Shown here piece after piece: positions 1,146 to 50,682 of a stretch of 64,000 nucleotides of DNA. This DNA comes from a virus. Position 1 is the stretch's first letter; every line of letters begins with the position of its first letter. Position numbers and translations under genes: made by a program. The notes below the pieces were generated by a model. The model searched no databases and was not told where the DNA came from. It saw nothing but the letters and a program-made list of their open reading frames with translations. Location: the IMG/VR virus record IMGVR_UViG_3300032304_001168, one strand, 5' to 3'.

Positions 1146-1157
1146 TCAATTAAAAAA

Positions 1158-2503: not shown

Positions 2504-2613
2504 TGTTTTCTTTTATATAAATATTAAGATTTAAAAAAACCACACTTCTTTTTCTTTTAAATTTTTTGTTTAGTTCTTCGATTAAACATTCTACCTTAAT
2601 TAACCACACCTAC

Positions 2614-2707: not shown

Positions 2708-2713
2708 ACAATA

Positions 2714-2926
2714 TTACGCAACCTCTTCAACAGTTACACCAATCAAAGGATATAATCTAACCATATCAGCAAATTGAGCGTGGTTTACATTCTCAATGTT
2801 TTCACCTACTTGTAATTTAAGTCTACTCAACCTATTAAATGTTGGTGTTGAATTTAATCGTTTTAGTATTTGTTCGTTGGGTATTGTAATTTTTACAGTT
2901 TTAATATTCCTAATTTTATCAATCAT
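2714..2926 (-). CDS. hypothetical protein (distal unit of array 1, no intact attC of its own)
   Basis: 70 aa ORF; only a lone GTATAAC at 2948 follows it. Confidence 0.65.
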   Translation of the reverse strand: MIDKIRNIKTVKITIPNEQILKRLNSTPTFNRLSRLKLQVGENIENVNHAQFADMVRLYPLIGVTVEEVA

Positions 2927-2989
2927 TTCTTTGTAATGTTAATAATAGTATAACCAATCAAACAACCATAAAGTTCCAAGTTTATAATT

Positions 2990-3562: not shown

Positions 3563-3618
3563 TATATTATATATTTAAGATTACAAATCTAAAAATAATG
3601 ATAAAATTTTATAAAAAC

Positions 3619-3654
3619 AAAAAAACTCCAATAATTTTTACAATTATCGGAGTT
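3619..3654 (-). terminator. intrinsic terminator
   Basis: AACTCCgATAATTg-taaa-AATTATtGGAGTT followed by a T-run on the minus strand. Confidence 0.65.
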
Positions 3655-3718
3655 CTATATATTGACCAACATAAGAAAGGGAAGTTGGGGATTTGTGAAA
3701 TATAAATATATCGAATTT

Positions 3719-4105
3719 TCAAAAAATCTTATTTATTATAAAAAAAAGTTGATTTTCTACCTTTTTGGGTAAAGTTTTTTTGGTAAACCACTTACACTCC
3801 TCGTGTTCATGCCCATCTTGAGCCTCATCCAAATCAATATTTATCTTTTTATCAATCTCATATAAGAACAAATAGAATTTCATTCTTGACCCACCACTTA
3901 ATGTCGCCACATAATCCAAGTTATCAACAATCTGATATCCAGTTTCTTCCCTAAACTCCCTTATAGCACCATCTTGAATATTCTCGTCTTTCTCCAAATG
4001 TCCTCCAGGAACTGACCAAATACCAGGTAAACTCCCTTTCTGACTTCTTTTGCATAATAAACAATGATTTTTATATTTTAATAAAATACCTGCACAATTT
4101 CCCAT
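3719..4105 (-). CDS. NUDIX hydrolase
   Basis: GGHLEKDENIQDGAIREFREETG Nudix box. Confidence 0.9.
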   Translation of the reverse strand: MGNCAGILLKYKNHCLLCKRSQKGSLPGIWSVPGGHLEKDENIQDGAIREFREETGYQIVDNLDYVATLSGGSRMKFYLFLYEIDKKINIDLDEAQDGHEHEECKWFTKKTLPKKVENQLFFIINKIF

Positions 4106-4131
4106 AATGAATTATTATTATATTTATATAT

Positions 4132-4479
4132 ATGAAGTTAAGTATAAATGACAACATTTTCAAGGTTAAAGTTCAAACATCTCCTGAAGAAACTCAAAAA
4201 GGTATGATGAACAAAACCTTTGACAAAACATTCAATGGAATGTTATTTGTTATGAAAAACCAAGACCATTGTTTTTGGATGAAAAATTGTATTATTCCAT
4301 TGGATATCATATTCATTGATAATGATGTAATAACCAAAATACACCACAATTGTCCTCCTTGTGAAACTAAGAATTGTAAATCATATTGTGGTGAAGGAAA
4401 CTTTATACTTGAAGTTAGAGGTGGAACTTGTAAGAAATTAGACATAAAAAAGGGGGATGTTGTTTCTTTCCCCCTTTAA
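4132..4479 (+). CDS. DUF192 family protein
   Basis: KGMM...GMLF...FWMKNCIIPLDIIFID...ILEVRGG. Confidence 0.85.
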   Translation: MKLSINDNIFKVKVQTSPEETQKGMMNKTFDKTFNGMLFVMKNQDHCFWMKNCIIPLDIIFIDNDVITKIHHNCPPCETKNCKSYCGEGNFILEVRGGTCKKLDIKKGDVVSFPL

Positions 4480-6211: not shown

Positions 6212-7033
6212 TTATTTGATATTTTTAAAAATATGTGTTATAACATCTATAGTCCACCCATTCCCAAGTAATTTAAACCTTTCGGTGTTTGAAACTCCTC
6301 TAGTATAATTTAATGGCATTGTTTGTAATAGTTCACAATCTTGTGGTGTATATTTGTATATCTGACCTAATTCATTTTTACAATAAGATGAAATCTGTCC
6401 TTTATACATTGATGCTGTTAAACAAGATGCTTTATCACTATATGACTTAACAACATCCTTTCTTGTTCCCCTACCATAAAAAGGTAAATCTAAATAGTTT
6501 GGATATTTGTCCTTAAATTCTGGAGAGATAATATCACAAATATTTAATCCCAAGTCTTTTGGTTGTGTTATATTTGGGATATTTGTCCAATATAACCTTG
6601 GTCTATTTTGAGCTGAAACCAATCTACTATTAATCTTAATCGGTTTGACACCAAGGTGTTCAGTGATTACATCTTGCCATTCTTCTCTCATTACAACATT
6701 CTCCAATAAAAAATATTTTGGTTTAACTTCTTTTAATAGTCTAACATACTCAAAGAATAATTTACTCCTTGGGTCATTGAAATTCAATTGTTTCCCTACC
6801 TTTGAAAATCCTTGGCAAGGCGACCCACCTATGAGAAGGTCTATTGGTGGTAAATCACTTCCTTTAATTTCTGTTATATCACCCAATTGAATTGTGTTGG
6901 GATAATTTTGTTGTGTAACCTTAATTGAACTTTTATCAATCTCGGATGCAAAATACTTATCATATTTTATTCTAATTCTATTTAGGGCAATTTGACCACA
7001 ACTTAACCCATCAAAAAGACTTAATACATTCAT
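6212..7033 (-). CDS. dcm: DNA (cytosine-5) methyltransferase
   Basis: SLFDG, GGSPCQ, LLENV, QNRPR, GNGW motifs. Confidence 0.93.
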   Translation of the reverse strand: MNVLSLFDGLSCGQIALNRIRIKYDKYFASEIDKSSIKVTQQNYPNTIQLGDITEIKGSDLPPIDLLIGGSPCQGFSKVGKQLNFNDPRSKLFFEYVRLLKEVKPKYFLLENVVMREEWQDVITEHLGVKPIKINSRLVSAQNRPRLYWTNIPNITQPKDLGLNICDIISPEFKDKYPNYLDLPFYGRGTRKDVVKSYSDKASCLTASMYKGQISSYCKNELGQIYKYTPQDCELLQTMPLNYTRGVSNTERFKLLGNGWTIDVITHIFKNIK

Positions 7034-7851
7034 AATTTAATATTTTTAAAAATATGTGCAATTACATCAACAGTCCAACCATTGCCAATCATTTTGTATC
7101 TTTCTGTGTTACTAACAACAGATGTATACCCTTCTGGTATTGTCTGTAATTTCTCAAATTCAGTTGGGTTTAATAATCTACATAAAGTTTTATCCTCGTT
7201 GAAGAGATATTGATTTGTGTGACAATTCTTGGTGGTTAAACAATTTGATTTCTCATTCTTAACCCAATTAGGATTTTTATTTATTCTTTCTTTTGTTCCC
7301 CATTTATTATAAAAACATTTTGGTATTTCTCTAAACTTGTCATCAGTTAATACATCAGATAGTTTAATCTTCTTATCTTCAGGTTGGGTTATGTTTGGAA
7401 TGTTTGTCCAATATAATCTGTCCCTATTTTGACCAGATACTAGATTACTATTAATTCTTATAGGTTCAACACCCATTTCCTTTGTGATGATGTCTTCCCA
7501 TTCTTTTTTCATCTTTACATTTTCAAGTAAAAAATATTTGGGCTGAACTTCATTTAGGACTCTAACAAATTCCCAAAATAAACCACTCTTTCCATCAAAA
7601 CCTGTTCTGTTACCTGCTGATGAAAAACTTTGACAAGGACTCCCACCAAATAAGATATCTATTTTTGGTAAATCAGAACCTTTGATATTATTAATATTAC
7701 CTAACTGAATCGTGTTAGGATAGTTGTGTTGAGTTACTTTAATTGCGTGAACATCAATCTCAGAAGCATAATAGTTATCGTAACTAATCCCAACTTTATT
7801 TAAAGCGATTTGGCCACAACTTAACCCATCAAACAAACTCAGTACATTCAT
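7030..7851 (-). CDS. dcm: DNA (cytosine-5) methyltransferase
   Basis: SLFDG, GGSPCQ, LLENV, QNRDR, GNGW motifs. Confidence 0.93.
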   Translation of the reverse strand: MNVLSLFDGLSCGQIALNKVGISYDNYYASEIDVHAIKVTQHNYPNTIQLGNINNIKGSDLPKIDILFGGSPCQSFSSAGNRTGFDGKSGLFWEFVRVLNEVQPKYFLLENVKMKKEWEDIITKEMGVEPIRINSNLVSGQNRDRLYWTNIPNITQPEDKKIKLSDVLTDDKFREIPKCFYNKWGTKERINKNPNWVKNEKSNCLTTKNCHTNQYLFNEDKTLCRLLNPTEFEKLQTIPEGYTSVVSNTERYKMIGNGWTVDVIAHIFKNIKL

Positions 7852-8918
7852 AATTCTATGTTTTTAAATATATGTGTTATTACATCAACTGTCCATCCAT
7901 TACCTAACATCTTTCTTGCTTGACTATCACTTACAACATTAGTATATCCATCAGGTATTGTTTGTAGTCTTTCCATTTCAATTCGATAAAGTTTTCTGTA
8001 TTTCCAAGTTGGGTCAACAATATAATCCAATGGACTTTCAACGGTAACTAAACAATTTCCTTTGTTATTTTTATTTGGGACATACATCTTAAATTCTTTA
8101 CTCCTTGGAGTTGAATCTCTACCAGTTTCAATTCTTATTTTTCTCCTCATTTCTTTACCCTCCTTAGTTCTAGTTTCATAAAATGAAAATGGTACTTCGT
8201 TTGATAAATCTATATTAACTCTTTTTCCATTATTAGCATATAGTGTTACAATACCATCATCATTAATGGTTATAGGACTACCATAAGATTTAGTTAATGA
8301 ATCTATTTTTTCATCAATAGTCATATTACAGGGGTCATCAACAATGATATCTTTTAAAGTAATTTCTTTGTCTATTGGTTGATTAATATTTGGAATATTA
8401 GTCCAATATAATCTTCTTCTATTTTGGGCCGATACCAAAGTTGAGTTTATTTCAATTGGTTCTAATCCCAATACATTGTTTATTATGGTTTCCCACTTCT
8501 TTAACATTTTAACATTTTCTAATAAAAAATATTTTGGTTTAACTTCTTTTAATAGTCTTACATATTCCCAAAACAAATATGATTGTCCTTGAAAGTTAAA
8601 TCCATTTCTTTTTAAATCCAAATATTGTTCTAATGTTAATATTTCAATATCTTCTTTTGTTGACATCCCTTTCATCTTACCAGCAAATGAAAGATTTTGA
8701 CAGGGTAATCCACCACACATTAATGTAATTGTTGGTAAATCACTCCCATTTATTTGTGTAATATCCCCCAATTGAATCGTGTTAGGATAGTTGTGTTGGG
8801 TTACTTTGATACTATGTTTATCTACCTCAGATGCGTAATAATTATCATATTTAATTCCAGCACGATTCAATGCGATTTGTCCACAACTCATCCCATCAAA
8901 AAGACTCAGTACATTCAT
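7848..8918 (-). CDS. dcm: DNA (cytosine-5) methyltransferase with longer variable region
   Basis: SLFDG, GGLPCQ, LLENV, QNRRR, GNGW motifs. Confidence 0.92.
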   Translation of the reverse strand: MNVLSLFDGMSCGQIALNRAGIKYDNYYASEVDKHSIKVTQHNYPNTIQLGDITQINGSDLPTITLMCGGLPCQNLSFAGKMKGMSTKEDIEILTLEQYLDLKRNGFNFQGQSYLFWEYVRLLKEVKPKYFLLENVKMLKKWETIINNVLGLEPIEINSTLVSAQNRRRLYWTNIPNINQPIDKEITLKDIIVDDPCNMTIDEKIDSLTKSYGSPITINDDGIVTLYANNGKRVNIDLSNEVPFSFYETRTKEGKEMRRKIRIETGRDSTPRSKEFKMYVPNKNNKGNCLVTVESPLDYIVDPTWKYRKLYRIEMERLQTIPDGYTNVVSDSQARKMLGNGWTVDVITHIFKNIEL

Positions 8919-10135: not shown

Positions 10136-11494
10136 TTAATTTGTTCTTACGACAACAAAATTGTATCTATTGCCATCAGGTCCTGTTATATAAACATCAT
10201 CATAACTTCCATCATAACTTGATATTGTGCCAATACCATCATGATCAACAATATCTTCAGCGACTCCTCTCACATTAACATAATATTTGATATTATAATC
10301 CATGCCCATACTTTTTAACCAATAAACAGGGTCTTCCATAGCTCTTCTAACATTTTGACTTACTTTTTTTTCAATCATTTCCTCTGTTGGTTCATCGTCA
10401 GGTTCAATACTATCCAATTCGTTTTGTAATTCTTCTATTTGTTGTTCCAAGTCAGTAATTTCATCTTCCTCTTGCGTATTTTCTAATTGTTCTTGTAAAT
10501 CACTTATTTGATTCTCTAAAACTTCTTTTCTTTCCTCTTGTTCATCAGTTAGTTCATAATCGTCAGCAAAATAACTTTCTGGATCGTCTCTTATATCGTT
10601 ATCATAGAACTCCTCAATATATTCCCTAATACTATCTTCATCAAGATTACTCTCTATTAAACTTTGACTTATATCATCCAATCCAACATCATCCAATAAT
10701 TGTTCTGTATTTTCAATTGCCGCTTCATACATATCATCATATGTTCCAACCATATATTCTTCATTTCTCAATCCAATAACCTCAAAATTGTATAATGTTC
10801 CATAAGATTTATAATTTGTTGGAATTATATAATAAACATCAGCATAGTTTTCTTGTAATTCTTTTATTTCATCTTCTATACTATCTATTTCTTCATACAA
10901 TTCATCTCTTTCTTCAGAATCTGATTCTAATCCTCCTCCTTGTTGAATAAGCTCTTCTATTCTTTCTAATTTATTTTTTATTAATTCTTTGGTTTCTTCA
11001 TCCATTTCATCTAGTTTATTCTCACTAACTAAATGGTCAAATAAAGCATTTGCGGCCAATCCTTCTTCATCAATGTTTGGATTAGTCAAATCCCAATCAT
11101 TATCTTCTCTTCTTGATTCAGCATCATCCAATTTTTTTAACTCTTCTTGTCTAATTCTTTTAGCTTCAATTGGTGAGCCATAATCCGAGATATGTCCTTT
11201 AACTTGAACTCCCTCGACACTAGAAATATTTGTATCCCTTATATCCAAATTCCCATCAATATAAGCAATATTACCCAATGTTTTAATTGGTTTACCACTT
11301 AAATCCAAATTACCAGTAACATATAATTTTTTACCCTCAAAGAATTTTGGTTTTAAAGCCGCACTTGAATAAGATGCCAATTCCAATATATTCAATAGTT
11401 CTTCTGGGCTTATTTTATAATATTCCTCTTCTTGTTCTTTTATAACTTTAATCAAGTGTTTAAACTGACCTTGACTTAATATAATTTTTCTCAT
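10136..11494 (-). CDS. acidic hypothetical protein, putative virion/head-associated
   Basis: MRKIILSQGQFKHLIKVIKE leader; TATTTATA motif upstream; GNLDL repeats; coiled coils. Confidence 0.6.
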   Translation of the reverse strand: MRKIILSQGQFKHLIKVIKEQEEEYYKISPEELLNILELASYSSAALKPKFFEGKKLYVTGNLDLSGKPIKTLGNIAYIDGNLDIRDTNISSVEGVQVKGHISDYGSPIEAKRIRQEELKKLDDAESRREDNDWDLTNPNIDEEGLAANALFDHLVSENKLDEMDEETKELIKNKLERIEELIQQGGGLESDSEERDELYEEIDSIEDEIKELQENYADVYYIIPTNYKSYGTLYNFEVIGLRNEEYMVGTYDDMYEAAIENTEQLLDDVGLDDISQSLIESNLDEDSIREYIEEFYDNDIRDDPESYFADDYELTDEQEERKEVLENQISDLQEQLENTQEEDEITDLEQQIEELQNELDSIEPDDEPTEEMIEKKVSQNVRRAMEDPVYWLKSMGMDYNIKYYVNVRGVAEDIVDHDGIGTISSYDGSYDDVYITGPDGNRYNFVVVRTN

Positions 11495-17257: not shown

Positions 17258-17288
17258 ATTGTTATATTTTTATTGGTTAACGATGGGT

Positions 17289-17320
17289 CAAAATTACGGA
17301 TTAGATTTCTAATTTCCAAA
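17289..17320 (-). promoter_or_regulatory. Bacteroidota sigma70-type promoter
   Basis: TTTG-N20-TAATTTTG on the minus strand. Confidence 0.75.
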
Positions 17321-17335
17321 CTTTATTTACAAATC

Positions 17336-17473
17336 TTAAGAAAAAATTTCAACTTTGGTGGGTTTATAACCATAATTCATAATTATGGATGAAATCTCTC
17401 TGTCAGCCTCCTTTTCAGTCAATGGCTTTCTATTCAATTTAACATTTTGGTATTCCAAATTAAACATTTTCAT
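17336..17473 (-). CDS. small hypothetical protein (45 aa, not in ORF track)
   Basis: MKMFNLEYQNVKLNRKPLTEKEAD...VEIFS*. Confidence 0.5.
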   Translation of the reverse strand: MKMFNLEYQNVKLNRKPLTEKEADREISSIIMNYGYKPTKVEIFS

Positions 17474-17780: not shown

Positions 17781-17810
17781 AACATATATTTTTATTGGTT
17801 AACGATGGGT

Positions 17811-17842
17811 CAAAATTACAAACTACTTTTCTAATTTCCAAA
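17811..17842 (-). promoter_or_regulatory. Bacteroidota sigma70-type promoter (duplicate of the 17289 module)
   Basis: TTTG-N20-TAATTTTG; shares its downstream leader with 17264-17297. Confidence 0.75.
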
Positions 17843-17843
17843 T

Positions 17844-18122
17844 TTAATTCAAAGAAATTAATCCAAATTTTGTTTGTTGGAATACCCCATTGGTTAAAGC
17901 AATTTTGACATCACCCTTCTTGAGCTTAACGACAATGTCAATCAGTTGTTTTTGTGATAATGTTATCTCATCACCATTATTATGGTTCTTATAACATTGT
18001 TCTTTTACCTTCTCATAAAAAACTTCTTTGAGGGTATCTCCAATTAACTCAAGCAGTTCATTTGGATTATTCTCAAAGAAGTTTATAAAGTTCTTAATGT
18101 ATATTTCAACATCGATGTTCAT
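17844..18122 (-). CDS. hypothetical protein
   Basis: 92 aa ORF. Confidence 0.6.
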   Translation of the reverse strand: MNIDVEIYIKNFINFFENNPNELLELIGDTLKEVFYEKVKEQCYKNHNNGDEITLSQKQLIDIVVKLKKGDVKIALTNGVFQQTKFGLISLN

Positions 18123-34566: not shown

Positions 34567-34591
34567 AGGTGTGTATATATTTTAGTTATGT
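34567..34591 (+). other. attI-like site 2 (no adjacent integrase)
   Basis: AGGTGTgtATATATTtTAGTTATGT, same spacing as 1121 and 47195. Confidence 0.6.
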
Positions 34592-34608
34592 GTAATAAAA
34601 AACTAAAA

Positions 34609-34830
34609 TTAAACTACCTCAACTTTATACAGTGTTCTATTACCTAAAATTTCTTTTGAAAAACTTTTAATCACATCATTATTTTTGTGTGAAATAGTTT
34701 CCACATCTGAATTATTCTTAAATTCTTCTAATGTTTTACTTAACCTGTTAAAGTAGATTTGTTCCCACAAAAATATACCAGTCCATTGTAAGTTTTTCAA
34801 AATAAAATCTGTTAATTTAGTTCTTTTCAT
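34609..34830 (-). CDS. cassette ORF, hypothetical
   Basis: 73 aa inside the cassette. Confidence 0.6.
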   Translation of the reverse strand: MKRTKLTDFILKNLQWTGIFLWEQIYFNRLSKTLEEFKNNSDVETISHKNNDVIKSFSKEILGNRTLYKVEVV

Positions 34831-34848
34831 ATTGTTTAATTTTTAAAA

Positions 34849-35064
34849 TTATTTACCATATCTACTATTAACAAAAACTCTATTAGCTCCCGTTGTAAGT
34901 GATAATTGATTTTGTTGCTTCATCAATAGTTCAAATTGATTTTCTATTCTTAACCTGTCTGAATTACTTTTTAACATATTAATCAATTTATCCAACTCCA
35001 TATCTCTTTTTGAAGTTAGAAAACCAATTTGTTCCTTGTAATGTAGTTCGAGTTTTTGTTCCAT
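34849..35064 (-). CDS. cassette ORF, hypothetical
   Basis: 71 aa inside the cassette. Confidence 0.6.
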   Translation of the reverse strand: MEQKLELHYKEQIGFLTSKRDMELDKLINMLKSNSDRLRIENQFELLMKQQNQLSLTTGANRVFVNSRYGK

Positions 35065-35093
35065 TTGTATAATTTTTTAGTTTTTTTACATAC

Positions 35094-35178
35094 ACATAAC
35101 AACAAATATAAGAAATAAATTTTGATTTATCTATTTTTTATAGGTAAAATTTACTTCTCATATTTGCAACCGTTAGCG
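35094..35178 (+). repeat. attC-like site (85 bp)
   Basis: ACATAAC-aa-CAAATATaAGAA...TTCTcATATTTG-caacc-GTTAGCG. Confidence 0.75.
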
Positions 35179-44673: not shown

Positions 44674-45170
44674 AAGTTATTTTTTAAATTTGAACCCTTC
44701 ATAAATACAGCACCAGTATTGGATACCAATTTTTCAAGTTGTTCAATCTTGTTATTTAATTCAATTATTGTTTTATCTTTCTCCCCAATCTCTTTTCTGA
44801 GTTTCATTAATGTCTCTTGTAACATTCCCATCTTATCATTTGGTTTCTCAACTTGTACAATTTTTTCCACTATCTTCTCAACTTCAATAGGAACTTGCAC
44901 AATTTTTTCTACTATAACCTCATTTGTGGAAAATATTTTCTGCTCAACTACCACTTCTTTTATTACCTCAACAATGACTTCCTTTTCAATGTATTCGATA
45001 ACTCTCTCATTATTTTCTCCTATTAATCCATATTTTTTTATATCAAATCCTTGTTTGAAACATTGTTGGAAAAATATCTCAACATCTTCAATATTGTTTA
45101 ACTTACAATAATCAGTTAAATCTTTTTGATTTTGTTTGTTAAGCGTTAGTGAGTTTTTCTTTTCCATCAA
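44670..45170 (-). CDS. hypothetical protein with VEKIV repeats and coiled coil
   Basis: EVIVEKIVQVPIEVEKIVEKIV. Confidence 0.6.
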   Translation of the reverse strand: MMEKKNSLTLNKQNQKDLTDYCKLNNIEDVEIFFQQCFKQGFDIKKYGLIGENNERVIEYIEKEVIVEVIKEVVVEQKIFSTNEVIVEKIVQVPIEVEKIVEKIVQVEKPNDKMGMLQETLMKLRKEIGEKDKTIIELNNKIEQLEKLVSNTGAVFMKGSNLKNNL

Positions 45171-45366
45171 TTATATCTTCAAATGAATTTATTGCAAATT
45201 TAAGAAAAGGTTTTGGATTATCCAAATCAACAAATGAATATTCATCCTTAACCACATCATAAATTCCAAATCCGTGATTCTTAATTGACTCCCCATAGTT
45301 CTGTTGGATTGTTGAACCCACTTGAATTATTGGTATTTTTCTTTTTATTTTAATTTTTCTATCCAC
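45139..45366 (-). CDS. sbcD: SbcD/Mre11 nuclease C-terminal fragment (split gene)
   Basis: IPIIQVGSTIQQNYGES...HGFGIYDV, the segment that normally follows GDIH. Confidence 0.75.
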   Translation of the reverse strand: MDRKIKIKRKIPIIQVGSTIQQNYGESIKNHGFGIYDVVKDEYSFVDLDNPKPFLKFAINSFEDIIDGKEKLTNA

Positions 45367-46211
45367 TCTGTTATGTTTTTATATTTTTTTTGATTTTTGG
45401 GTAAGAAAAAATTCATTTCATATTTTAAATTATTTTCTTTACAAAATTTTATAGTTTCTTGTATTTGGGCTTTAATTCTTTCCTCTTCTAATATGAGTCC
45501 TTTAATTTCTTCTAATACTTTTTTTCCATCCTTGTACAAAATTAAAAAATCAGGTAAATAATTTCTTTTTAATCCTCCAAAATCATATTTGATAGATATT
45601 TTGTGTTTTTTTGTCCAAAATATAACTTTTTCATCCTCATTAAGTTCTATCATTCTTTTTTGCTCCCAAGATGAATGGTAAAATTCATTTTCATTTGTTG
45701 TAGTGTTTAATATAAACCCTCTTTTATGATTACCATTTCTTTCATTTTCACTTTCTTTTATTAATCTTTCAATATTTTTTAAAGAAATATTTTCCCTAAA
45801 TTCTTTAGTATGCCAATCCATAGAACCATTAGATAATCGGTGTCTGTCAAAAAAAATTAAATGTTTCTCTAATCTTTCTTTTTTTCTCCAACTATCTTTA
45901 ACTTTTTCTTTTATCTTTTTTTTAGCATCATCAGTATGTTTAAACATGCCAGGTTTCCTATTACCAAAATTACCATTTTTTTCCCCTAATTGTGAGAATT
46001 TTTGCCACTCAACTTGACACAATCTACTACAAAATTTTTTTTTGGAGTTAGGTAATTTTATAAAATTATTTGTACATCCACTAAATTCACAATTTACTTC
46101 AATTTTGATTTGTTTCTTTTCACATTGACCACAAATTTTAGAGCAATATTTTTGTTTTTCCCTTCTAGGTTTGAAATCTAAATTACAACAATCGCATTTT
46201 TTATTTTCCAT
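45345..46211 (-). CDS. free-standing homing endonuclease (Zn-ribbons, NUMOD3-like, TnsA-N-like PD-(D/E)XK)
   Basis: KYCSKIC/KFCSRLC, GEKNGNFG, YHSSWE...YLPDFLI...EEIKG. Confidence 0.8.
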   Translation of the reverse strand: MENKKCDCCNLDFKPRREKQKYCSKICGQCEKKQIKIEVNCEFSGCTNNFIKLPNSKKKFCSRLCQVEWQKFSQLGEKNGNFGNRKPGMFKHTDDAKKKIKEKVKDSWRKKERLEKHLIFFDRHRLSNGSMDWHTKEFRENISLKNIERLIKESENERNGNHKRGFILNTTTNENEFYHSSWEQKRMIELNEDEKVIFWTKKHKISIKYDFGGLKRNYLPDFLILYKDGKKVLEEIKGLILEEERIKAQIQETIKFCKENNLKYEMNFFLPKNQKKYKNITEWIEKLK

Positions 46212-46253
46212 ATTTATATTTTTAAGTATAAATATAAATATCACCAAAAAACA

Positions 46254-46898
46254 CTAAATCACAATTTCCCAACCTTTTTTCAAATAAAAATCTAAATCTT
46301 TTTCATCAATTTCTATTTCTCTTTCTAAATAAATTGTTTGTCTGCGATGTATATCCCCACATAGAACGATATCACATCCCTCAAATTTACTCACCTCATA
46401 TCCTGTTTCAAACTTATATCCAATGTCTGTATATAACCCTATAATAGGTCCGTGAAACAATCCAATTTTAAGGTTATTAGATTTCTCAATTGTTGGGGGA
46501 ATATTGTGTTCAAATAAAGAATATACAACCCAATCAATATTCTCATCAACATATACACCTCTATCTTTGTAATAGACAATGTTATCATTATTCATTGATT
46601 CAATGATGGGGGTTAATGTATCCAATCTTGATAAATTGTTCTCAAGCATATCATGATTTCCAACAATGATTATTGTTTTTGCAATCTTGGAACATTTATC
46701 TAATGTCCATCTAACCATTTCAATAAGTTCTGGGCTGACTTGGTTTTTACTATGGACTAGGTCGCCACTGAATACCAGTCTATCAGGTTTAATCTCTTTG
46801 AATTGATTAAACATATCAATCAATATTGATTTGTATAAATCGTGGTCTTTTATTAATCTCAAATGTAAATCAGAGAAGTGACAGATTGTTTTTATCAT
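46254..46898 (-). CDS. sbcD: SbcD/Mre11 (gp47-like) metallophosphoesterase N-terminal fragment
   Basis: SDLH, GDLVH, GNHD, FHG, GDIH. Confidence 0.9.
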   Translation of the reverse strand: MIKTICHFSDLHLRLIKDHDLYKSILIDMFNQFKEIKPDRLVFSGDLVHSKNQVSPELIEMVRWTLDKCSKIAKTIIIVGNHDMLENNLSRLDTLTPIIESMNNDNIVYYKDRGVYVDENIDWVVYSLFEHNIPPTIEKSNNLKIGLFHGPIIGLYTDIGYKFETGYEVSKFEGCDIVLCGDIHRRQTIYLEREIEIDEKDLDFYLKKGWEIVI

Positions 46899-47134
46899 TT
46901 CAGTTTTTGTTTTGATTTAATAATATTCACCAATTCTTCTTTTATTTCGTTTTGAATATCCTCATCAATATTTCCCCACCAACCATCAAAACCACCTCTA
47001 TCACATAGAGCATCAATAATTTCATTTACAATTTCTTTTTCCATTTTATTTATTTTTTTCTTCCATCAAATACAACAATCATACTAAATCAGAGAAGTGA
47101 CAGATTGTTTTTATCATTTCAGTTTTTGTTTTGA
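46866..47134 (+). repeat. 50-bp direct repeat (46866-46915 and 47085-47134) containing the sbcD start
   Basis: TAAATCAGAGAAGTGACAGATTGTTTTTATCATTTCAGTTTTTGTTTTGA present twice. Confidence 0.9.
46895..47044 (-). CDS. small hypothetical protein (49 aa, not in ORF track)
   Basis: MEKEIVNEIIDALCDRGGFDGWWGNIDEDIQNEIKEEL...; ATGA-coupled to sbcD. Confidence 0.6.
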   Translation of the reverse strand: MEKEIVNEIIDALCDRGGFDGWWGNIDEDIQNEIKEELVNIIKSKQKLK

Positions 47135-47154
47135 ATTTCGTAATAGTTTCCCAT
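47134..47154 (-). pseudogene. remnant of integrase 5' end
   Basis: MGNYYEI versus MKKTNYYEI of 287-1087, with homologous upstream DNA. Confidence 0.65.
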
Positions 47155-47194
47155 TTTTACCTCTTAAATCATTGATTATTTGAGGTTTTAAAAT

Positions 47195-47219
47195 AGGTGT
47201 TGATATATTATAGTTATAC
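47195..47219 (+). other. attI-like site 3
   Basis: AGGTGTTGATATATTATAGTTATAC, one mismatch to 1121-1145. Confidence 0.75.
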
Positions 47220-47231
47220 TCAATTAAAAAA

Positions 47232-47378
47232 TTATTTTGAGTTATATAATATATTCCATTCAGTATATGTATTTGATAATAATTCTTCTATTGTAATCCC
47301 AAATCTTATACAATCACCTAAACATATTTTGTAAAAATTCACACTTCTTTCGTTTATTATATATTCTGAAAATGTCAT
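47232..47378 (-). CDS. cassette ORF, hypothetical (48 aa, not in ORF track)
   Basis: MTFSEYIINERSVNFYKICLG...ILYNSK*. Confidence 0.6.
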   Translation of the reverse strand: MTFSEYIINERSVNFYKICLGDCIRFGITIEELLSNTYTEWNILYNSK

Positions 47379-47416
47379 ATTTGTATTTTTAATTTGTAAA
47401 ATAATTTTTTAACTAA

Positions 47417-47470
47417 GTATAACAAAGTGTAAAAAACATTAAAACTATTTTTTACACTCAACCGTTATGT
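47417..47470 (+). repeat. attC-like site (54 bp type)
   Basis: GTATAAC-aa-AGTGTAAAAAA-cattaaaacta-TTTTTTACACT-caacc-GTTATGT. Confidence 0.8.
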
Positions 47471-47474
47471 GTAA

Positions 47475-47792
47475 TTAAACAGAGAAACCCTCGTTAATCA
47501 AATATTTTGTTATTGAATGATGGTTGCTCAATGGTCTGTGTTCAATTGAAATATGTCCTTTGTTGTTTTTCCAAGTCCAAGTATGGTCAACTTCTAATTC
47601 TGAATTTACAGATAAACCATATTCAATTGTATGATAGTTATCAGATACAACACAATCTTCTACTTTAAATACAGCAATAATAAAATCTTTTTCAGGTGTC
47701 CATTCAACTTTACCAGCATTACAAGGTTTTCCGATAATCAAAGAGTATATCTGATTAATGTTTTCTATTGTTAAATCTTTTATCGTTTTCAT
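47475..47792 (-). CDS. cassette ORF, hypothetical
   Basis: MKTIKDLTIEN...; start chosen downstream of the attC-borne promoter. Confidence 0.65.
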   Translation of the reverse strand: MKTIKDLTIENINQIYSLIIGKPCNAGKVEWTPEKDFIIAVFKVEDCVVSDNYHTIEYGLSVNSELEVDHTWTWKNNKGHISIEHRPLSNHHSITKYLINEGFSV

Positions 47793-47816
47793 AAATTTTT
47801 CGTTTAAATTAACTAC

Positions 47817-47910
47817 ACATAACAAGGTGTATATGTAATTTTTTTACAAAGGTACGAATAAGTTTTGACATTTCCAAATAAAAAACTACATATACACCCA
47901 TACGTTATAA
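47817..47910 (+). repeat. attC-like site with internal promoter
   Basis: ACATAAC-aa-GGTGTATATGTA...TACATATACACC-catac-GTTATAA. Confidence 0.8.
47847..47878 (-). promoter_or_regulatory. Bacteroidota promoter inside attC loop
   Basis: TTTG-N20-TACCTTTG. Confidence 0.75.
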
Positions 47911-47922
47911 GCAATATTATTT

Positions 47923-48165
47923 TTATTTTGAGTATCTATTTTTAAAATCCTCAAATGCTTCTAAAATTGTGTTTCCCACACCATAGTTCACATGTTCCCA
48001 TTCTTCTTTCATAAAGTGATGTGGGTCATATTGCCACTCTTCGTTTCCTTCAAGTGAGTTTACACAATCAGCATCACAACATGTTTCTACAATAGCAAAT
48101 TTACCGTGTCTCATGTGAACTATGGTCATTGGGTAAATGTCTTCAATTTTGTTTATATTCTTCAT
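47923..48165 (-). CDS. cassette ORF, hypothetical
   Basis: 80 aa between cassette inverted repeats. Confidence 0.65.
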   Translation of the reverse strand: MKNINKIEDIYPMTIVHMRHGKFAIVETCCDADCVNSLEGNEEWQYDPHHFMKEEWEHVNYGVGNTILEAFEDFKNRYSK

Positions 48166-48207
48166 AATTTTAAGTTTTTTAAATCGGTAAAATAAAAATA
48201 ATACAGC

Positions 48208-48261
48208 TTATAACAACAAATATATTGCATTAAAACGACAATATATTTGCAACCGTTATGT
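48208..48261 (+). repeat. attC-like site (54 bp type)
   Basis: TTATAAC-aa-CAAATATATTG-cattaaaacga-CAATATATTTG-caacc-GTTATGT. Confidence 0.8.
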
Positions 48262-48278
48262 GTAATAAAAAATAACTA

Positions 48279-48482
48279 TCAAACCTCGTTTCCATCATCA
48301 AAGATTGTAAAACACGATTTGTCTGATAAAGTCACCTTATATCCAACATATCCACCATCTGCAAAAATGTGCAAGTCTGTTATCCATTCATCAGTTGCAC
48401 CTTTTTCATCTAATTTGCTTTGTATTTTCACTCTTGCTGCATCGTGTTTTACAAAGTCTAATGTTATTCTATTTGCCCACAT
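48279..48482 (-). CDS. cassette ORF, hypothetical
   Basis: 67 aa between cassette inverted repeats. Confidence 0.65.
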   Translation of the reverse strand: MWANRITLDFVKHDAARVKIQSKLDEKGATDEWITDLHIFADGGYVGYKVTLSDKSCFTIFDDGNEV

Positions 48483-48517
48483 ATTATTAAGTTTAGTTTA
48501 AGTTATTTTTTACATAC

Positions 48518-48610
48518 ACATAACAAGGTGTATATGTAATTTTTTACAAAAGTACGAATAAGTTTTGACATTTCCAAATAAAAAACTACATATACACCCA
48601 ACCGTTAGCA
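48518..48610 (+). repeat. attC-like site with internal promoter (near-identical to 47817-47910)
   Basis: same stem; loop contains minus-strand TTTG-N20-TACTTTTG at 48547-48578. Confidence 0.8.
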
Positions 48611-48634
48611 CCAATACTACGAAAGTGCTTCGAT

Positions 48635-49252
48635 TTAAATTTCGTTTGGATTTTCATAGATTATTACTGGGATTTTTTTAATTTTTAATCTTTTTGCAGC
48701 TTCCCATCTATGATGTCCATCTAATATACCAAAATCATAATCAAGTAATATTGGTGGTAATTCATCACCATTTTTTAATTTCTTAATTATGTTCAATATA
48801 TTTTGTTCTTCTTGTTTTTCAGTTCCATATATTCTCGAATCATTGGTATCAATATATTTCAATTTACTCAAATATCTCCCAATCTCAATACCTCTCGTAT
48901 CACTCCACAAATATTTTTGTTTATTAACCAAATCTGTGTCAGTATTATACACCAAATCTGGTTTCTTTTCTTTTGGTTGTTTTAATTTTGGTTCAATTTT
49001 TATACCTTTTTTGGTTTCAACAAAATTGAAAAGATTTATAATATCACTTGGATTATCTTCACCAAATATTTTGCTAAATTGTTTATTATTATGCTCAACG
49101 GCACGATTCACATCATTGTATGCAGTCTCCAAATCTTTATAGTATCTATCTTTAAAAGATGAATACCACCCATACATTTTTTTTACATCTAAATCTTGGC
49201 TTTCATTAAGATATTCTCTTATTGTAGTTGCTATAAATTTTCTCAATTCCAT
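48635..49252 (-). CDS. cassette ORF: ParB/Srx-like domain protein with ...YLNE leader
   Basis: LPPILLD...ILDGHHRWEAAKRL...IPVI. Confidence 0.75.
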   Translation of the reverse strand: MELRKFIATTIREYLNESQDLDVKKMYGWYSSFKDRYYKDLETAYNDVNRAVEHNNKQFSKIFGEDNPSDIINLFNFVETKKGIKIEPKLKQPKEKKPDLVYNTDTDLVNKQKYLWSDTRGIEIGRYLSKLKYIDTNDSRIYGTEKQEEQNILNIIKKLKNGDELPPILLDYDFGILDGHHRWEAAKRLKIKKIPVIIYENPNEI

Positions 49253-49313
49253 GTTCTTTTACTTTATATATAAATATTCCAAAATTAAATTTTTGCTAAA
49301 CAAACCGTACTGG

Positions 49314-49407
49314 TGCTAACAAGGTGTATAAGAAAGTTTGCTATCAATATTTGTGGTAATTTGAGAGTTCATCTAAGCAAACCTTCTAATACACCCAACC
49401 GTTAGCA
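49314..49407 (+). repeat. attC-like site (94 bp type)
   Basis: TGCTAAC-aa-GGTGTAT...ATACACC-caacc-GTTAGCA. Confidence 0.8.
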
Positions 49408-49419
49408 GTAATATTGTGG

Positions 49420-49659
49420 CTACTTCCCAATTGGTCTATTACAAGTTGCACAGATATAACTACCATTCATTAAATAACATTGAGATTGCTGACAGCCACA
49501 ATACATACTGCTAACATCGGCTATACGCAAGTTTTTTGCTTCCGTTAGTCGGTTAATAACATTGTTTGCCTCTATCAACATTTCAATCAATTTGTCTTTT
49601 TCTATCATTTGATACATCTCTACTTTTTCAGAGTGTGTCATTTCAATTACTTGCATCAT
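49420..49659 (-). CDS. cassette ORF starting inside its attC loop; C-terminal Cys-rich zinc finger
   Basis: KNLRIADVSS encoded by the attC arm; CGC...CATC. Confidence 0.65.
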   Translation of the reverse strand: MMQVIEMTHSEKVEMYQMIEKDKLIEMLIEANNVINRLTEAKNLRIADVSSMYCGCQQSQCYLMNGSYICATCNRPIGK

Positions 49660-49722
49660 ATATTTTAATTTTAGTGTTTCAAATTCGCAAAAAACCTGAC
49701 GTATAGCCGAGAACCGTTATAG
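49509..49722 (+). repeat. attC-like site with long coding loop (214 bp)
   Basis: TGCTAAC-a-TCGGCTATACG-CAAGTTTTTTGC...GCAAAAAACCTG-a-CGTATAGCCGA-gaacc-GTTATAG. Confidence 0.75.
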
Positions 49723-49980
49723 ATAATAAGCATCCAACACACTTTCAATATAACCTATTGATATGTGTATTTTAACTAAATCATCATATGTTTTTATACG
49801 TTCAAAAAATTCCTCTTTATTCAACCACTCCACATAGAAACCACCTTCATGTAAATTCATACAATATCCATCATATTCCGTATAAAAACTATCTAACAGC
49901 TTACTATCTATAACATCAGATATATGTAATTTTTCATTACTCTTATCTAAGTTTTGTTCTAAATTTTTATCTTCTTTCAT
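49717..49980 (-). CDS. cassette ORF starting inside its attC loop
   Basis: KLHISDVIDS encoded by the attC arm; stop codon in the GTTA core. Confidence 0.65.
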   Translation of the reverse strand: MKEDKNLEQNLDKSNEKLHISDVIDSKLLDSFYTEYDGYCMNLHEGGFYVEWLNKEEFFERIKTYDDLVKIHISIGYIESVLDAYYL

Positions 49981-50027
49981 CTTATTAAATTTTGTGTTAA
50001 AACTACATATATCTGTAACCGTTATAA
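49908..50027 (+). repeat. attC-like site with coding loop (120 bp)
   Basis: CTATAAC-at-CAGATATATGTA...TACATATATCTG-taacc-GTTATAA. Confidence 0.8.
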
Positions 50028-50031
50028 AACA

Positions 50032-50682
50032 TTATAAACGACCACCCCACTCAAATCTAACATATTCAACTTTAAAATCAACATCGTAAATCTCTTTTAG
50101 TAAATTTACAGCATATTGTTCATAACTACAATTCTTATCATATTCTAAACGATGTTGATTATCGTTTACTTCCATTGTCATATGTTCACCTTCGAAACTA
50201 TGACTTTCAATAAATTTGATTTCCATATTTTTAATTTTTCTTCCATCAAATACAACAATCATACTATCTTTTGTACCACTTTGTACTTTACCCTTTGAAT
50301 TTACAGGATAATAAAAATTACCATCATTGTCAACTTTCCCAAATTTAATCCTCCCCCTTACAAATTCAATTTCAGTCGCATTTGGTTTAATATAATCGTG
50401 AAATAACTTTGTGGAGGTGGAAACTGGTATCAAAAATACACAAACTTTTCCCTTCTTCATCTCCTCAATCCCTTTCTTAATAAAGGCCTCCTTTAACTTC
50501 TGACTATATGGGGGATTTATGAAAGTTGACATCCCCCATTCAATATTTAAACCATCAATATCAACATCCTTTTCATTATATGGACAAGGGTCAAAATCAA
50601 ATTTAAACCTCTTATTTAACTCCTCATAAAATTCTGGGGGTGTTGCATAATTATCATCATTATTAATGTGAATCTTTTTCAT
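50032..50682 (-). CDS. phage DNA N6-adenine methyltransferase (Dam-like), apparently fused to a downstream small ORF
   Basis: YATP, FDFDPC, FINPPYS, LIPVST, RGRIKF; extra MEIKFIES... tail. Confidence 0.85.
   Translation of the reverse strand: MKKIHINNDDNYATPPEFYEELNKRFKFDFDPCPYNEKDVDIDGLNIEWGMSTFINPPYSQKLKEAFIKKGIEEMKKGKVCVFLIPVSTSTKLFHDYIKPNATEIEFVRGRIKFGKVDNDGNFYYPVNSKGKVQSGTKDSMIVVFDGRKIKNMEIKFIESHSFEGEHMTMEVNDNQHRLEYDKNCSYEQYAVNLLKEIYDVDFKVEYVRFEWGGRL

Follow-up and report, generated by a model that had tools for sequence, protein, structure and literature searches.

In integrons, a tyrosine recombinase gene has an attI site at its 5' end, and single-gene cassettes, each a promoterless ORF followed by an attC site, are transcribed away from intI from the promoter Pc. 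Arrays with at least two attC sites and no integrase gene nearby are termed CALINs. Recombination of folded single strands is also carried out by Xer-type enzymes that lack the I2 helix: in CTX phage and other IMEX, the substrate is a dif-mimicking hairpin with two arms and a bulged centre, and one strand exchange is followed by replication. In Acinetobacter plasmids, Xer-type sites delimit the pdif modules, discrete sets of genes that recur in varied contexts; these sites are double-stranded and alternate in orientation, and the enzymes are the host XerC/D. We know of no attI or hairpin covariation in pdif modules. The I2 helix, which lies in the IntI insert, has been viewed as the innovation enabling single-stranded attC recombination (PMC7790495).

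Two further descriptions concern phages directly. The PeSL cassettes of T4-type phages comprise small accessory ORFs that lie in the hyperplastic regions of large myoviruses and are flanked by stem-loop and promoter motifs and swapped among close relatives by homologous recombination, with no dedicated recombinase, attI or cassette-specific end complementarity (PMC2839356, PMC4122927). Qi et al. (2023) found attC clusters in phage genomes, including that of a Polaribacter phage, with DNA methyltransferases in the cargo; these were captured integron fragments or solitary attC clusters, which bacterial IntI1 recognises (PMC9892861).

Here, we studied a window of 64,000 nucleotides (IMG/VR record IMGVR_UViG_3300032304_001168) from a large phage, probably of Bacteroidota. 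An earlier note had described one of its regions, locus 2, as a hypervariable library of cassettes behind a deleted integrase. Comparison of this region with related contigs suggests that this cassette array belongs to an integron-like system native to the phage and that it still works without an integrase gene of its own, a reading to which we assign a probability of about 0.78.

Organization of the cassette array

Locus 2 (47134-50024, - strand) comprises an integrase remnant, an attI-like site and seven complete cassettes. These are listed here with the flanking features and the recombinase gene of locus 1; own-end complementarity compares the two ends of one cassette.

287-1087, - strand: intact tyrosine recombinase gene of locus 1 (266 aa), whose product is presumed to act in trans; attI at 1088-1143
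47058-47137, - strand: junction scar; copy of the phosphoesterase 5' region at 47085-47137 (matches 46866-46918) abutting a Dam 3' copy at 47058-47088 (matches 50228-50262)
47134-47154, - strand: recombinase gene remnant of 7 codons, MGNYYEI against MKKTNYYEI of the intact gene
47155-47213, - strand: attI-like site; its specific part, TATAATATATCAACACCT..., extends to the ATG of the remnant
47214-47464, - strand: cassette 1; 48-nt hairpin site 47420-47467 and ORF 47232-47378 (48 aa)
47465-47904, - strand: cassette 2; 88-nt site 47820-47907 and ORF 47475-47792 (105 aa); own-end complementarity 10/14
47905-48255, - strand: cassette 3; 48-nt site 48211-48258 and ORF 47923-48165 (80 aa); own-end complementarity 12/14
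48256-48604, - strand: cassette 4; 88-nt site 48521-48607 and ORF 48279-48482 (67 aa); own-end complementarity 11/14
48605-49401, - strand: cassette 5; 88-nt site 49317-49404 and ORF 48635-49252 (205 aa)
49402-49716, - strand: cassette 6; 208-nt site 49512-49719 and ORF 49420-49659 (79 aa)
49717-50021, - strand: cassette 7; 114-nt site 49911-50024 and ORF 49717-49980 (87 aa); own-end complementarity 11/14
50022-50232, - strand: eighth cassette, 5'-truncated and without a hairpin; ORF 50032-50232 fused in frame to Dam after residue 149

Within each cassette, a hairpin site comes first and a small ORF follows, encoded on the same strand and read towards attI; all seven sites are oriented with the genes. 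On the gene strand, a cassette runs from C through a one-sided bulge, (G)GTT(G), the hairpin, GTTAT, a short arm, the ORF and a complementary arm to ATAA. Neighbouring cassettes meet at a conserved ATAA|C, and the last cassette of the array is joined directly to attI. The ORFs are mostly small, at 48-105 aa, as the earlier note had stated; the one in cassette 5 is longer.

Five types are represented among the sites (a1 to a7, numbered as their cassettes). Sites a1 and a3 belong to a 48-nt type, and a2 and a4 to an 88-nt type that contains a promoter; a5 stands for another 88-nt type, a6 for one of 208 nt and a7 for one of 114 nt. Two of the five also occur in locus 1, at 1393-1440 and 2617-2704, the latter 88% identical to a5, so that the earlier count of at least four types with two in common holds. 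The loop of a2 carries a Bacteroidota-type promoter motif (47847-47878), and a promoter motif likewise lies in the loop of a4 (48547-48578). The ORFs of cassettes 6 and 7 begin within the loops of their sites; translation of the former runs through the 3' arm (..LRIADVS..), the 3' arm of the latter codes for KLHISDVI, and the ORF of cassette 7 ends on the TAA that begins the TAAC of the next site. Relatives of Dam stop at residue 149-150, and the ORF fused to it here has its counterpart in an ordinary cassette of contig L016 (2679-2876).

The recombinase and its attI sites

The recombinase gene nearest to locus 2 is that of locus 1, 46 kb away. Its product matches the Pfam families Phage_int_SAM_4 and Phage_integrase, and the catalytic residues R132, K157, H216, R219, H242 and Y251 are invariant among 22 family members. 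TIGR02249 aligns in two separate segments for a score of 154 bits (cutoff 265), the best NCBIfam model, NF040815 (XerA / 'integron integrase'), scores 179 bits, below its cutoff of 220, and the best solved structure is XerA of P. abyssi (4a8e). In the alignment with VchIntIA (2a3v), query residues 177-211 span IntI residues 180-262, with about 48 residues missing, and the IntI-specific insert (the I2 alpha-helix region) is absent from all 22 family members examined. By these alignments the recombinase is Xer/IntI-like and lacks the IntI-specific insert. Because the missing stretch of some 48 residues is the one that bears I2 (PMC7790495), recombination of hairpins by this enzyme is a prediction only. 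The family is conserved in over 60 phage contigs, where the arrays occupy the same position.

The attI region of locus 2 matches that of locus 1 at 94% (47183-47253 against 1109-1179), confirming the homology to 1061-1145 proposed earlier. A core, ATAACTA(T/G)AATATATCAACACCT, occurs at 47195-47217, at 1121-1143 and in a third copy at 34567-34589, where 0.06 matches would be expected by chance; the cores of locus 2 and of locus 1, beside the intact gene, are identical at 22 of 23 positions. In most loci, the motif ATAAC|TAnnATATAT precedes the integrase start codon by 50-70 nt. attI is not a hairpin, and it has only ATAAC in common with the hairpin sites. The crossover at the attI of locus 2 would fall between A47214 and C47213 of ATAA|C.

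As the earlier note had observed, only seven integrase codons remain at locus 2 (MGNYYEI, 47154 to 47134), after which homology to the intact gene ends and runs into the copy of the phosphoesterase 5' region. The same remnant and junction are found in contig L064 (13351-13371) and in L181 (G002 near 247120). In G002, the module of attI and remnant lies 50 kb from the integrase of G002, behind 8-9 other sites. We infer that deletion of the cis integrase predates the split of the window, L064 and G002 lineages.

Structure of the hairpin sites

When the six sites of 150 nt or less were folded against shuffles as single-stranded DNA, the z-scores of the gene strand ranged from -3.4 to -7.5, and in all six this strand was more stable than its complement; the 208-nt site (49512-49719) was folded without shuffles. 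The strand asymmetry arises from G.T wobbles, two of which are conserved in the 48-nt class. In that class, pairing is found in 97.7% of cells, compensatory changes affect 9 of the 12 inner pairs, and the 11-nt loop is invariant. TAAC and GTTA are invariant across sites, which fall into size classes of 48, about 88 and about 125 nt.

The sites are thus attC-like in that they are imperfect palindromes whose structure is kept while the sequence varies, and they fit the 7-mer attC core consensus RYYYAAC / GTTRRRY only in part (e.g., GTTATGT). Integron sites have a symmetric unpaired spacer with extrahelical bases, whereas no unpaired central spacer with extrahelical L-box bases was seen in the phage folds, which have instead a one-sided 3-nt bulge, G.T wobbles and near-perfect inner stems. 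The site consensus, ATT-N4-ATAA | CGGTTG.. | ..TAT-N4-AGT, would fit a dif-type core, in which two inverted arms of roughly 11 bp enclose a central region of 6-8 bp, at the putative cleavage points. The sites also have a role outside recombination, as the unvarying loop of the 48-nt class and the promoters in loops show.

Cassettes as discrete, probably mobile units

If a cassette moves as a circle, its own two ends may be expected to correspond, as in integrons. Across 203 cassettes, we compared the 3'-terminal 12 nt with the 12 nt that follow GTTA in the cassette's own site: on average 7.8 of 12 positions pair (mode 10), against 4.2 of 12 for the adjacent site and 4.0 for random sequence. 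All seven cassettes of locus 2 show this own-end complementarity, at 7-12 of 14 positions. A cassette of L033 (3947-4312) is 88% identical to one of L038 (8445-8812) with different neighbours, and homology stops directly after ATAAC.

The arrays are also polarized. In 27 IMG/VR loci, the 5 kb upstream of the integrase gene contain 128 co-oriented strong sites, against 2 on the downstream side, and over 93 loci there are 357 co-oriented and 69 opposite sites, the opposite ones mostly weak. Arrays reach 19 sites in this phage lineage. The longest ORF is on the gene strand in 233 of 242 cassettes, and the ORF starts within the site in 76 of 209. The contigs L007/L009, L008 and L010 have 100% identical integrase genes and are 98-100% identical over 2.5 kb from attI onwards; in L007/L008/L010 homology breaks exactly at the TAAC of attI, and the DNA upstream, including the attI-proximal cassettes, is unrelated.

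Exchange among related phages

The flanks of locus 2 are kept at 89-98% identity in L064 and L065, and L181 has the same remnant module at a different location, yet no cassette ORF of the window was found in any of these three contigs. Together with the unrelated attI-proximal cassettes beside identical integrase genes, this bears out the earlier description of a hypervariable library. The further suggestion of exchange with locus 1 finds indirect support in the common attI and the two common site types, in the 5' and 3' ends of cassette 1, which are common to the attI-proximal cassettes of both loci, and in a cassette from the integrase-less array of L065, which matches at 97% identity a cassette from the array beside the integrase gene of L019. 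However, locus 1 and locus 2 of the window genome have no cassette in common.

Part of the exchange in these regions was clearly not site-specific. The Dam/phosphoesterase composite of the junction scar recurs in L064 (11026-11126) on the opposite side of the array, L019 has a hybrid site with non-complementary arms, and the body of one ORF is common to L072 and L087 although both flanking hairpins differ. A relative of the cassette 5 ORF occurs in L179 without sites. The difference between L064 and the window could also have arisen if co-infecting phages swapped the whole array by homologous exchange, with no integrase acting in trans at this locus. The relatives carry a T4-type portal.

Alternative explanations

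The likeness to PeSL cassettes raises the question of whether the sites are regulatory repeats only, that is, promoter or terminator hairpins between early genes, shuffled by homology, with the neighbouring recombinase irrelevant. The Bacteroidota promoter consensus in the a2 and a4 loops, the invariant loop of the 48-nt class, the portal type of the relatives, the homologous or illegitimate events represented by junction scars and the hybrid site, and the documented cases of PeSL-mediated shuffling (PMC2839356, PMC4122927) all speak for this. We nevertheless find it decidedly improbable, since exchange by homology alone leaves over the complementarity of each cassette's own ends, the exact joining of cassettes to an attI that is no hairpin and has just ATAAC in common with the sites, the association with the recombinase gene seen in the 128:2 site placement, and stem covariation with free sequence. 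The same cassettes might instead be exchanged as double-stranded DNA at a 5' core of Xer/dif type, where the arm ATT-N4-ATAA and an inverted arm enclose a 6-7 bp spacer, CGGTTG; the hairpin would then serve expression or termination. An enzyme without the I2 insert whose closest match is XerA, inverted ATT-N4-ATA half-sites visible around the spacer without folding, and the view that the ancestors of IntI acted on double-stranded dif-like sites (PMC4792948) make this an unlikely reading that still deserves serious attention. A core of about 30 bp would suffice for it, and it leaves unexplained both the arm-to-arm complementarity at variable positions over 11-23 bp and the complementary cassette ends, as well as conserved wobbles that let only one strand fold well.

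That locus 2 is a dead relic, in which recombination ended with the integrase deletion and relatives differ through homologous array swaps across the conserved flanks, seems improbable: the near-identity of attI in the window, L064 and G002 despite differing arrays and contexts, the intactness of all seven sites and their end complementarity, and the intact cognate recombinase elsewhere in the window outweigh the loss of the cis gene, the truncation of the distal cassette and its fusion to Dam, and the scars of illegitimate exchange in the flanks. Capture of a bacterial integron fragment from the host has precedents in phages carrying such fragments and CALINs (PMC9892861), and a few Bacteroidota and Ignavibacteriota genomes have arrays beside recombinases of 40-45% identity. 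It is barely credible here, given a recombinase family kept with its arrays across phage contigs, a G+C content of 26-29%, as in the remaining phage DNA, ORFs co-oriented with phage transcription and opposite to those of bacterial arrays, and a nearest genome match (74%) that is a 2-kb contig in a metagenome bin.

A probable phage-native integron-like system

In our preferred reading of a working integron-like array, the recombinase of locus 1 would excise cassettes as circles, which would be integrated through strand exchange at ATAA|C, either into attI or into another hairpin site; this point corresponds to the AA|C (= G|TT) crossover of integrons. Its substrate would be the gene strand folded as a hairpin, presenting a dif-like site in which a bulged spacer of about 7-8 nt separates two ATT-N4-ATA arms; such a site resembles both the attC sites of integrons and the hairpin on which XerCD acts in CTX phage. 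The array would be served in trans, because the cis integrase appears to have been lost before the window, L064 and G002 lineages split, yet their arrays differ completely. Locus 2 resembles a CALIN, and differs from most of them in retaining attI and an integrase remnant.

The phage system is a new variant of the integron principle. It has the order of recombinase gene, attI and site of a classical integron, single-gene cassettes bounded by structured palindromes with TAAC/GTTA cores, complementary cassette ends and integrase-less arrays elsewhere in the genome. It departs from integrons in an enzyme without the I2 helix, in residing in a phage genome with several attI copies, and in having its ORFs on the opposite strand, read towards the recombinase gene. 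Because of this strand, each site lies 5' of its gene and is able to give it a promoter or a start codon and leader: a2 and a4 could provide promoters, and a6 and a7 a start codon with a leader, while no outward Pc promoter logic is evident. Unlike the CTX and IMEX cases, the recombinase is phage-encoded, sites flanking cassettes are many, and the target is an attI within the phage rather than the host dif. The lineage is likewise set apart from the cases of Qi et al. by its own recombinase family, its own attI and the length of its arrays (PMC9892861). For the broader proposal of a jumbo-phage integron, in which folded hairpins are recombined by a Xer-like enzyme that lost I2 or never had it, the sites are expression modules and counter-defence cargo is distributed over several attI, we see the odds as even. 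If true, this would be an independent or ancestral route to single-strand cassette recombination, in which recombination sites double as promoter, start codon and leader peptide modules, and the phage would possess a rapidly exchanged counter-defence arsenal with several attI sites per genome.

Cargo

Anti-defence and host-range factors had both been suggested as the cargo. The seven ORFs of locus 2 belong to no informative family, except for cassette 5, whose product has a leader ending in ..YLNE and a C-terminal ParB-N/sulfiredoxin-like (ParB/Srx-like) domain, and we found no support for host-range factors. An anti-defence role is made plausible by related arrays, in which Pfam searches of 147 cassette ORFs identified the Thoeris inhibitor Tad6 (4.6e-41) and four DNA methyltransferases (MT-A70, N6_N4 twice and D12). 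The cargo would be a fast-turnover accessory pool, probably enriched in counter-defence genes. The ORF of cassette 3 has a 46%-identical relative in the array of L016.

Structure of the recombinase-less array

All of the elements that the earlier note described at locus 2, the array without its own recombinase gene (47134-50024, - strand), are present: a recombinase remnant, an attI-like site, seven cassettes, and site types shared with locus 1, the array and attI beside the intact tyrosine recombinase gene. The core of attI, ATAACTA(T/G)AATATATCAACACCT, is identical at 22 of 23 positions between the two loci (chance expectation, 0.06). The parts are as follows.

47154-47134, - strand: recombinase remnant, MGNYYEI (MKKTNYYEI in the intact 266-aa recombinase, 287-1087)
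47155-47217: remnant start codon to ATAAC, matching locus 1 DNA
47420-50024, - strand: seven strong sites, all in gene orientation
47058-47137: other array end, where the seven-codon remnant joins a copy of the phosphoesterase 5' region and then a copy of the Dam 3' end
34567-34589: third attI-like copy (ATAACTAAAATATATACACACCT), directly upstream of a gene for a 789-aa SbcC-like ATPase

The third attI-like site (with its cassette, 34567-35175) has no recombinase gene nearby; a single cassette stands behind it, holding two ORFs (71 and 73 aa) and a hairpin site of its own (35097-35175).

Sites were found by scanning for TAAC-spacer-stem...stem-spacer-GTTA, in which only stems of at least 14 are informative, a weak threshold giving background-level counts on both strands. 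Six sites are no longer than 150 nt; folded as single-stranded DNA, they gave z scores of -3.4 to -7.5, with the gene strand beating its complement in all six; an Rfam search of the window gave no match. The sites fall into five types, in agreement with the earlier count of at least four, and two of these types are, as claimed, common to locus 1 (1393-1440, and 2617-2704, which is 88% identical to 49317-49404). Relatives of the Dam methylase stop at residue 149-150, the window Dam continues into a 64-residue ORF, and that ORF is an ordinary cassette in the related contig L016 (2679-2876), because of which we read it as evidently an eighth cassette whose hairpin was lost at an illegitimate joint.

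Anatomy of the cassettes

On the gene strand, a unit reads ...ATAA/C-(G)GTT(G)-5' arm-loop-3' arm-T(T)GTTAT-short arm-ORF-complementary short arm-ATAA/C... (slash, exchange point). The consensus of 269 distinct sites from the window and 93 related loci has ATT-N4-ATAAC-G(G)TT(G) on the 5' side and ATT-N4-ATA...TGTTAT on the 3' side, followed by ..GTAGTT. Three lines of evidence place each site 5' of its own ORF and the exchange point at ATAA/C. In the last cassette, ...ATAA abuts C and attI-specific sequence, with no hairpin between the ORF and attI. The ORF starts inside the loop of the upstream site in 76 of 209 cassettes; locally, the ORFs of cassettes 6 and 7 begin there and translate the 3' arms of their sites (LRIADVS and KLHISDVI). 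Finally, a cassette of L033 (3947-4312) is 88% identical to one of L038 (8445-8812) among different neighbors, and the homology takes in the upstream hairpin and ends right after the downstream ATAAC. Pairs of homologous ORFs were set aside as a guide to this question, as only four independent non-syntenic pairs were available and they disagreed.

The two ends of a cassette are complementary to each other. When the 12 nt before the next TAAC were compared with the 12 nt after a cassette's own GTTA in 203 non-redundant cassettes, the mean match was 7.8 of 12 (mode 10), against 4.2 for the arm of the adjacent site and 4.0 for random arms; this test alone cannot tell an upstream-hairpin from a downstream-hairpin cassette model. 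All seven local cassettes show such complementarity (7-12 of 14, some offset by one base). These ends can pair only if they meet, as they would in a circle, which is the integron signature. In the 48-nt class of sites, an 18-pair structure accounts for 97.7% of cells across 24 sites, with shuffle and slide controls far lower, and double changes that preserve pairing occur at nine of the 12 inner pairs. Also conserved are two G.T wobbles, and C.A mismatches are therefore expected on the complementary strand; the loop is invariant (TCGTTTTAATG). Viewed on the bottom strand of a classical integron, the order recombinase gene-attI-site has the same polarity, a match that we infer by analogy; the phage ORFs, however, are sense on that strand and are read toward attI and the recombinase gene.

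The recombinase and its tie to the sites

The recombinase matches Phage_int_SAM_4 and Phage_integrase in Pfam, and its best NCBIfam models are NF040815 (XerA/'integron integrase'; 179 bits, cutoff 220) and TIGR02249 (integron integrase; 154 bits, cutoff 265), the latter matching in two stretches. In alignment with VchIntIA (2a3v), 34 query residues lie opposite 82 of IntI, so that ~48 residues of IntI-specific insert are missing, and Pyrococcus abyssi XerA (4a8e) aligns end to end. All 22 family members keep the residues R, K, H, R, H, and Y, and the IntI insert occurs in none. The I2 helix has been described as the step by which integron integrases exchanged double-stranded substrates for single-stranded ones (PMC7790495, PMC4792948). 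Because this insert is absent, the enzyme fails a defining test of IntI, although it is housed in an integron-like element.

In 27 IMG/VR loci with 5 kb on each side of the recombinase gene, 128 strong co-oriented sites lie upstream and two downstream, compared with one and zero in the opposite orientation; at least one upstream site is found in 26 of the 27. The largest arrays (L016 and L033) have 19 sites, and in most loci an attI motif lies 50-70 nt before the recombinase start codon. Four loci from four different samples (L007, L008, L009, and L010) carry identical recombinase genes, and the next 2.5 kb is 100% identical in L007, L009, and L010 and 98% in L008, yet the upstream sequences of L007/L009, L008, and L010 are unrelated from the base before TAAC. 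Since sites and attI have just ATAAC in common, such repeated, precise joints are best explained by site-specific exchange. A lysogeny integrase with an attP was considered and rejected: the variable DNA upstream of attI is not from a host and consists of hairpin-bearing, AT-rich phage cassettes. IMG/VR nevertheless classes the 276-281 kb genomes G001 and G002 (the records of L001 and L002) as 'provirus', and the lineage may yet be temperate.

Turnover at locus 2

The related contig L064 resembles the window on both sides of the array (Dam 99% and phosphoesterase 96% identical in amino acids; flanks 89-98% in nucleotides) and has the same remnant joint, there directly before the real phosphoesterase gene. 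No cassette ORF is common to the two, and matches are confined to site sequences; L065 shows the same pattern. The composite scar of the window (47058-47137), a phosphoesterase 5' copy joined to a Dam 3' copy, recurs in L064 at 11026-11126, on the opposite side of the array, giving the pattern A-X-B'A'-Y-B across the two, which is as expected if unequal or illegitimate exchange took place between co-infecting genomes. G002 has a recombinase that is 85% identical and also carries attI, the remnant, and the start of the phosphoesterase gene (five codons) with a single mismatch; there the module lies in a different gene context, behind another set of 8-9 sites and 50 kb away from the intact recombinase gene. 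Because this module is common to the window, L064, and G002, the integrase deletion is evidently old; attI has been kept almost to the base, and the cargo has turned over completely.

Hairpins, double strands, or replaced arrays

We read the array at locus 2 as one that is probably served in trans by the locus-1 enzyme. Homologous exchange may instead have replaced whole arrays, without service in trans, and exchange in these regions is not all site-specific: an ORF common to L072 and L087 (93% identical) has different hairpins on both sides, and a relative of the cassette 5 ORF occurs in L179 with no sites beside it. In L019 (~3860-3910), a hybrid 48-nt site has 5' and 3' arms from different site variants, unpaired, which suggests exchange inside the invariant loop. 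The earlier description of a hypervariable library is upheld insofar as L064 and L065 have like flanks and no cassette ORF in common with the window; recombination itself is inferred from comparisons between relatives, and the earlier interpretation as a whole is partly supported.

How the sites are used is a separate question. In the folded site, a bulged spacer separates two inverted ATT-N4-ATA arms, an arrangement that resembles a dif site and the CTX-phage hairpin, and the unfolded 5' half has the same arms. A conventional, dif-type exchange on double-stranded DNA is therefore possible, its arms existing without folding, and the missing I2 helix calls for caution with a hairpin mechanism; however, the complementarity of variable positions, the pairing of cassette ends, and the strand-specific wobbles favor the folded form, and we put the probability of a single-strand, hairpin mechanism at roughly 0.6. 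The sites act in expression too, because the 48-nt loop is invariant and a complete promoter motif lies in the loops of two local sites (a2 and a4), and in this they are like the PeSL motifs of T4-type phages (PMC2839356, PMC4122927). Regulatory repeats of that kind cannot explain why cassette ends are complementary, why joints fall at attI, or why sites are distributed 128:2 about the recombinase gene. The phage element is the integron principle in a new form.

Cargo

The longest ORF lies on the gene strand in 233 of 242 cassettes (median 93 aa; 48, 105, 80, 67, 205, 79, and 87 aa in local cassettes 1-7). Pfam matches were obtained for ~13 of 147 cassette ORFs of related arrays, including the following.

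L024, 8211-8846: Tad6, type I Thoeris inhibitor (4.6e-41)
L024, 7420-7992: MT-A70 DNA methylase, in the cassette next to Tad6
L015 and L025: two N6_N4 DNA methylases
L036: D12 DNA methylase

Others were GNAT, YopX, DUF5662, DUF7448, a radical SAM protein, and a phosphoesterase; Dam itself lies between sites in L072 and three other loci. The anti-defense cargo proposed earlier is thus found in relatives' arrays, as Tad6 and four DNA methylases, but none was recognized among the seven local ORFs, for which it is plausible. Six of these had no match in Pfam, PHROGs, or the ESM Atlas. Cassette 5 (48635-49252) alone has a recognizable part: the ESM Atlas gave weak viral ParB-N leads, and its last ~80 residues are predicted to adopt a ParB-N/sulfiredoxin-like fold (model pLDDT 76; Foldseek 1.6e-4 to 5k5d). 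It shares a leader, ..FI.TTIR.(Y/F)LNE, and a ParB-N-like motif with a 330-aa locus-1 cassette protein (1511-2503); the two otherwise differ, and the leader goes together with the type of the upstream site. One cassette 5 relative adjoins an Acb3 gene. Relatives in L179, L176, and L177 were uninformative as boundary evidence, having no flanking sites.

Relatives and significance

More than 120 metagenomic protein clusters are at least 77% identical to the recombinase and annotated only as XerD. Among species-representative genomes, the closest match (74%) is on a 2-kb contig in a Chitinophagales bin, and homologs at 35%-51% are mostly from Bacteroidota. A few bacterial homologs (35%-50% identical), also without the insert, adjoin arrays of ~125-nt sites.

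L141, 10400-15335: Ignavibacteriota, seven sites
L117, 9147-11049: Flavobacterium, four sites
L100: Pseudopedobacter
L158: Flammeovirgaceae

In L141 and L117, which we examined in detail, the ORF comes before its own site, as is classical, and the recombinase gene has the inverse orientation, unlike in the phage arrays. Isolates of Polaribacter phage Freya (L094, Freya_10, 1-4150, vs. L095, Freya_1) differ by 0 to ~4.1 kb in the small, co-oriented ORFs that lie just upstream of an integrase of 37% identity; Freya was dropped as a cultured example, as there are no TAAC/GTTA hairpins upstream of that integrase. A full-text literature search for this phage system found no description, and phage-borne integron fragments and attC clusters have been reported (PMC9892861).

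IntI-based surveys may miss integron-like elements of bacteria, because members of the same recombinase family adjoin arrays in a few genomes of Bacteroidota and Ignavibacteriota. Integrons are held to be bacterial, and recently also archaeal, devices; a phage-native integron with an I2-less enzyme, reversed genes, and sites that serve as promoters and start codons would mean that the cassette principle has evolved more widely than supposed, and would make a natural experiment on the origin of hairpin use by Xer-type enzymes. The accessory and counter-defense genes of large phages would be renewed faster than by point mutation, a fast turnover suggested because identical integrase genes accompany different cassettes. 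The arrays are also a concentrated pool of small uncharacterized phage proteins, Tad6 and orphan methylases included, and a good hunting ground for new anti-defense functions.

The phage and its genome

The window is AT-rich (26%-33% G+C) and has almost every gene of its first 53 kb on the - strand. Its genes include those for a virion structural protein (match to phrog_1645, 3e-143), the SbcD-like phosphoesterase, the Dam methylase, and a NUDIX enzyme. Its relatives are IMG/VR contigs of 100-465 kb, one with a T4-type portal gene; the promoter consensus of Bacteroidota, TTTG-N18-21-TAnnTTTG, is present at 12 places (4.7 expected), nine of them on the gene strand; and the nearest homologs of the recombinase, cultured-phage and genomic, are from Flavobacteriia phages and Bacteroidota. 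Because of these contig sizes, promoters, and homologs, we take the source to be a jumbo phage, probably with a Bacteroidota host.

Three tandem paralogs (273, 273, and 356 aa) lie at 6212-8918, in repeat families that are 60%-76% identical to one another in nucleotides. An 87-nt direct repeat (17263-17349 and 17785-17871; 82% identical) holds a Bacteroidota-type promoter motif, and its copies are probably duplicated promoters. The phosphoesterase gene (45139-46898), unbroken in L064 (258 aa), is in two pieces in the window (46254-46898 and 45139-45366), split by a 300-aa ORF (45345-46247) with zinc-ribbon motifs and a TnsA-like endonuclease domain, which looks like a mobile endonuclease insertion. 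In the related phage L177 (1-3224 and 7111-8615), inteins break up a T4-type portal gene, and a second intein/LAGLIDADG gene flanks a group of small ORFs, among them a relative of cassette 5.
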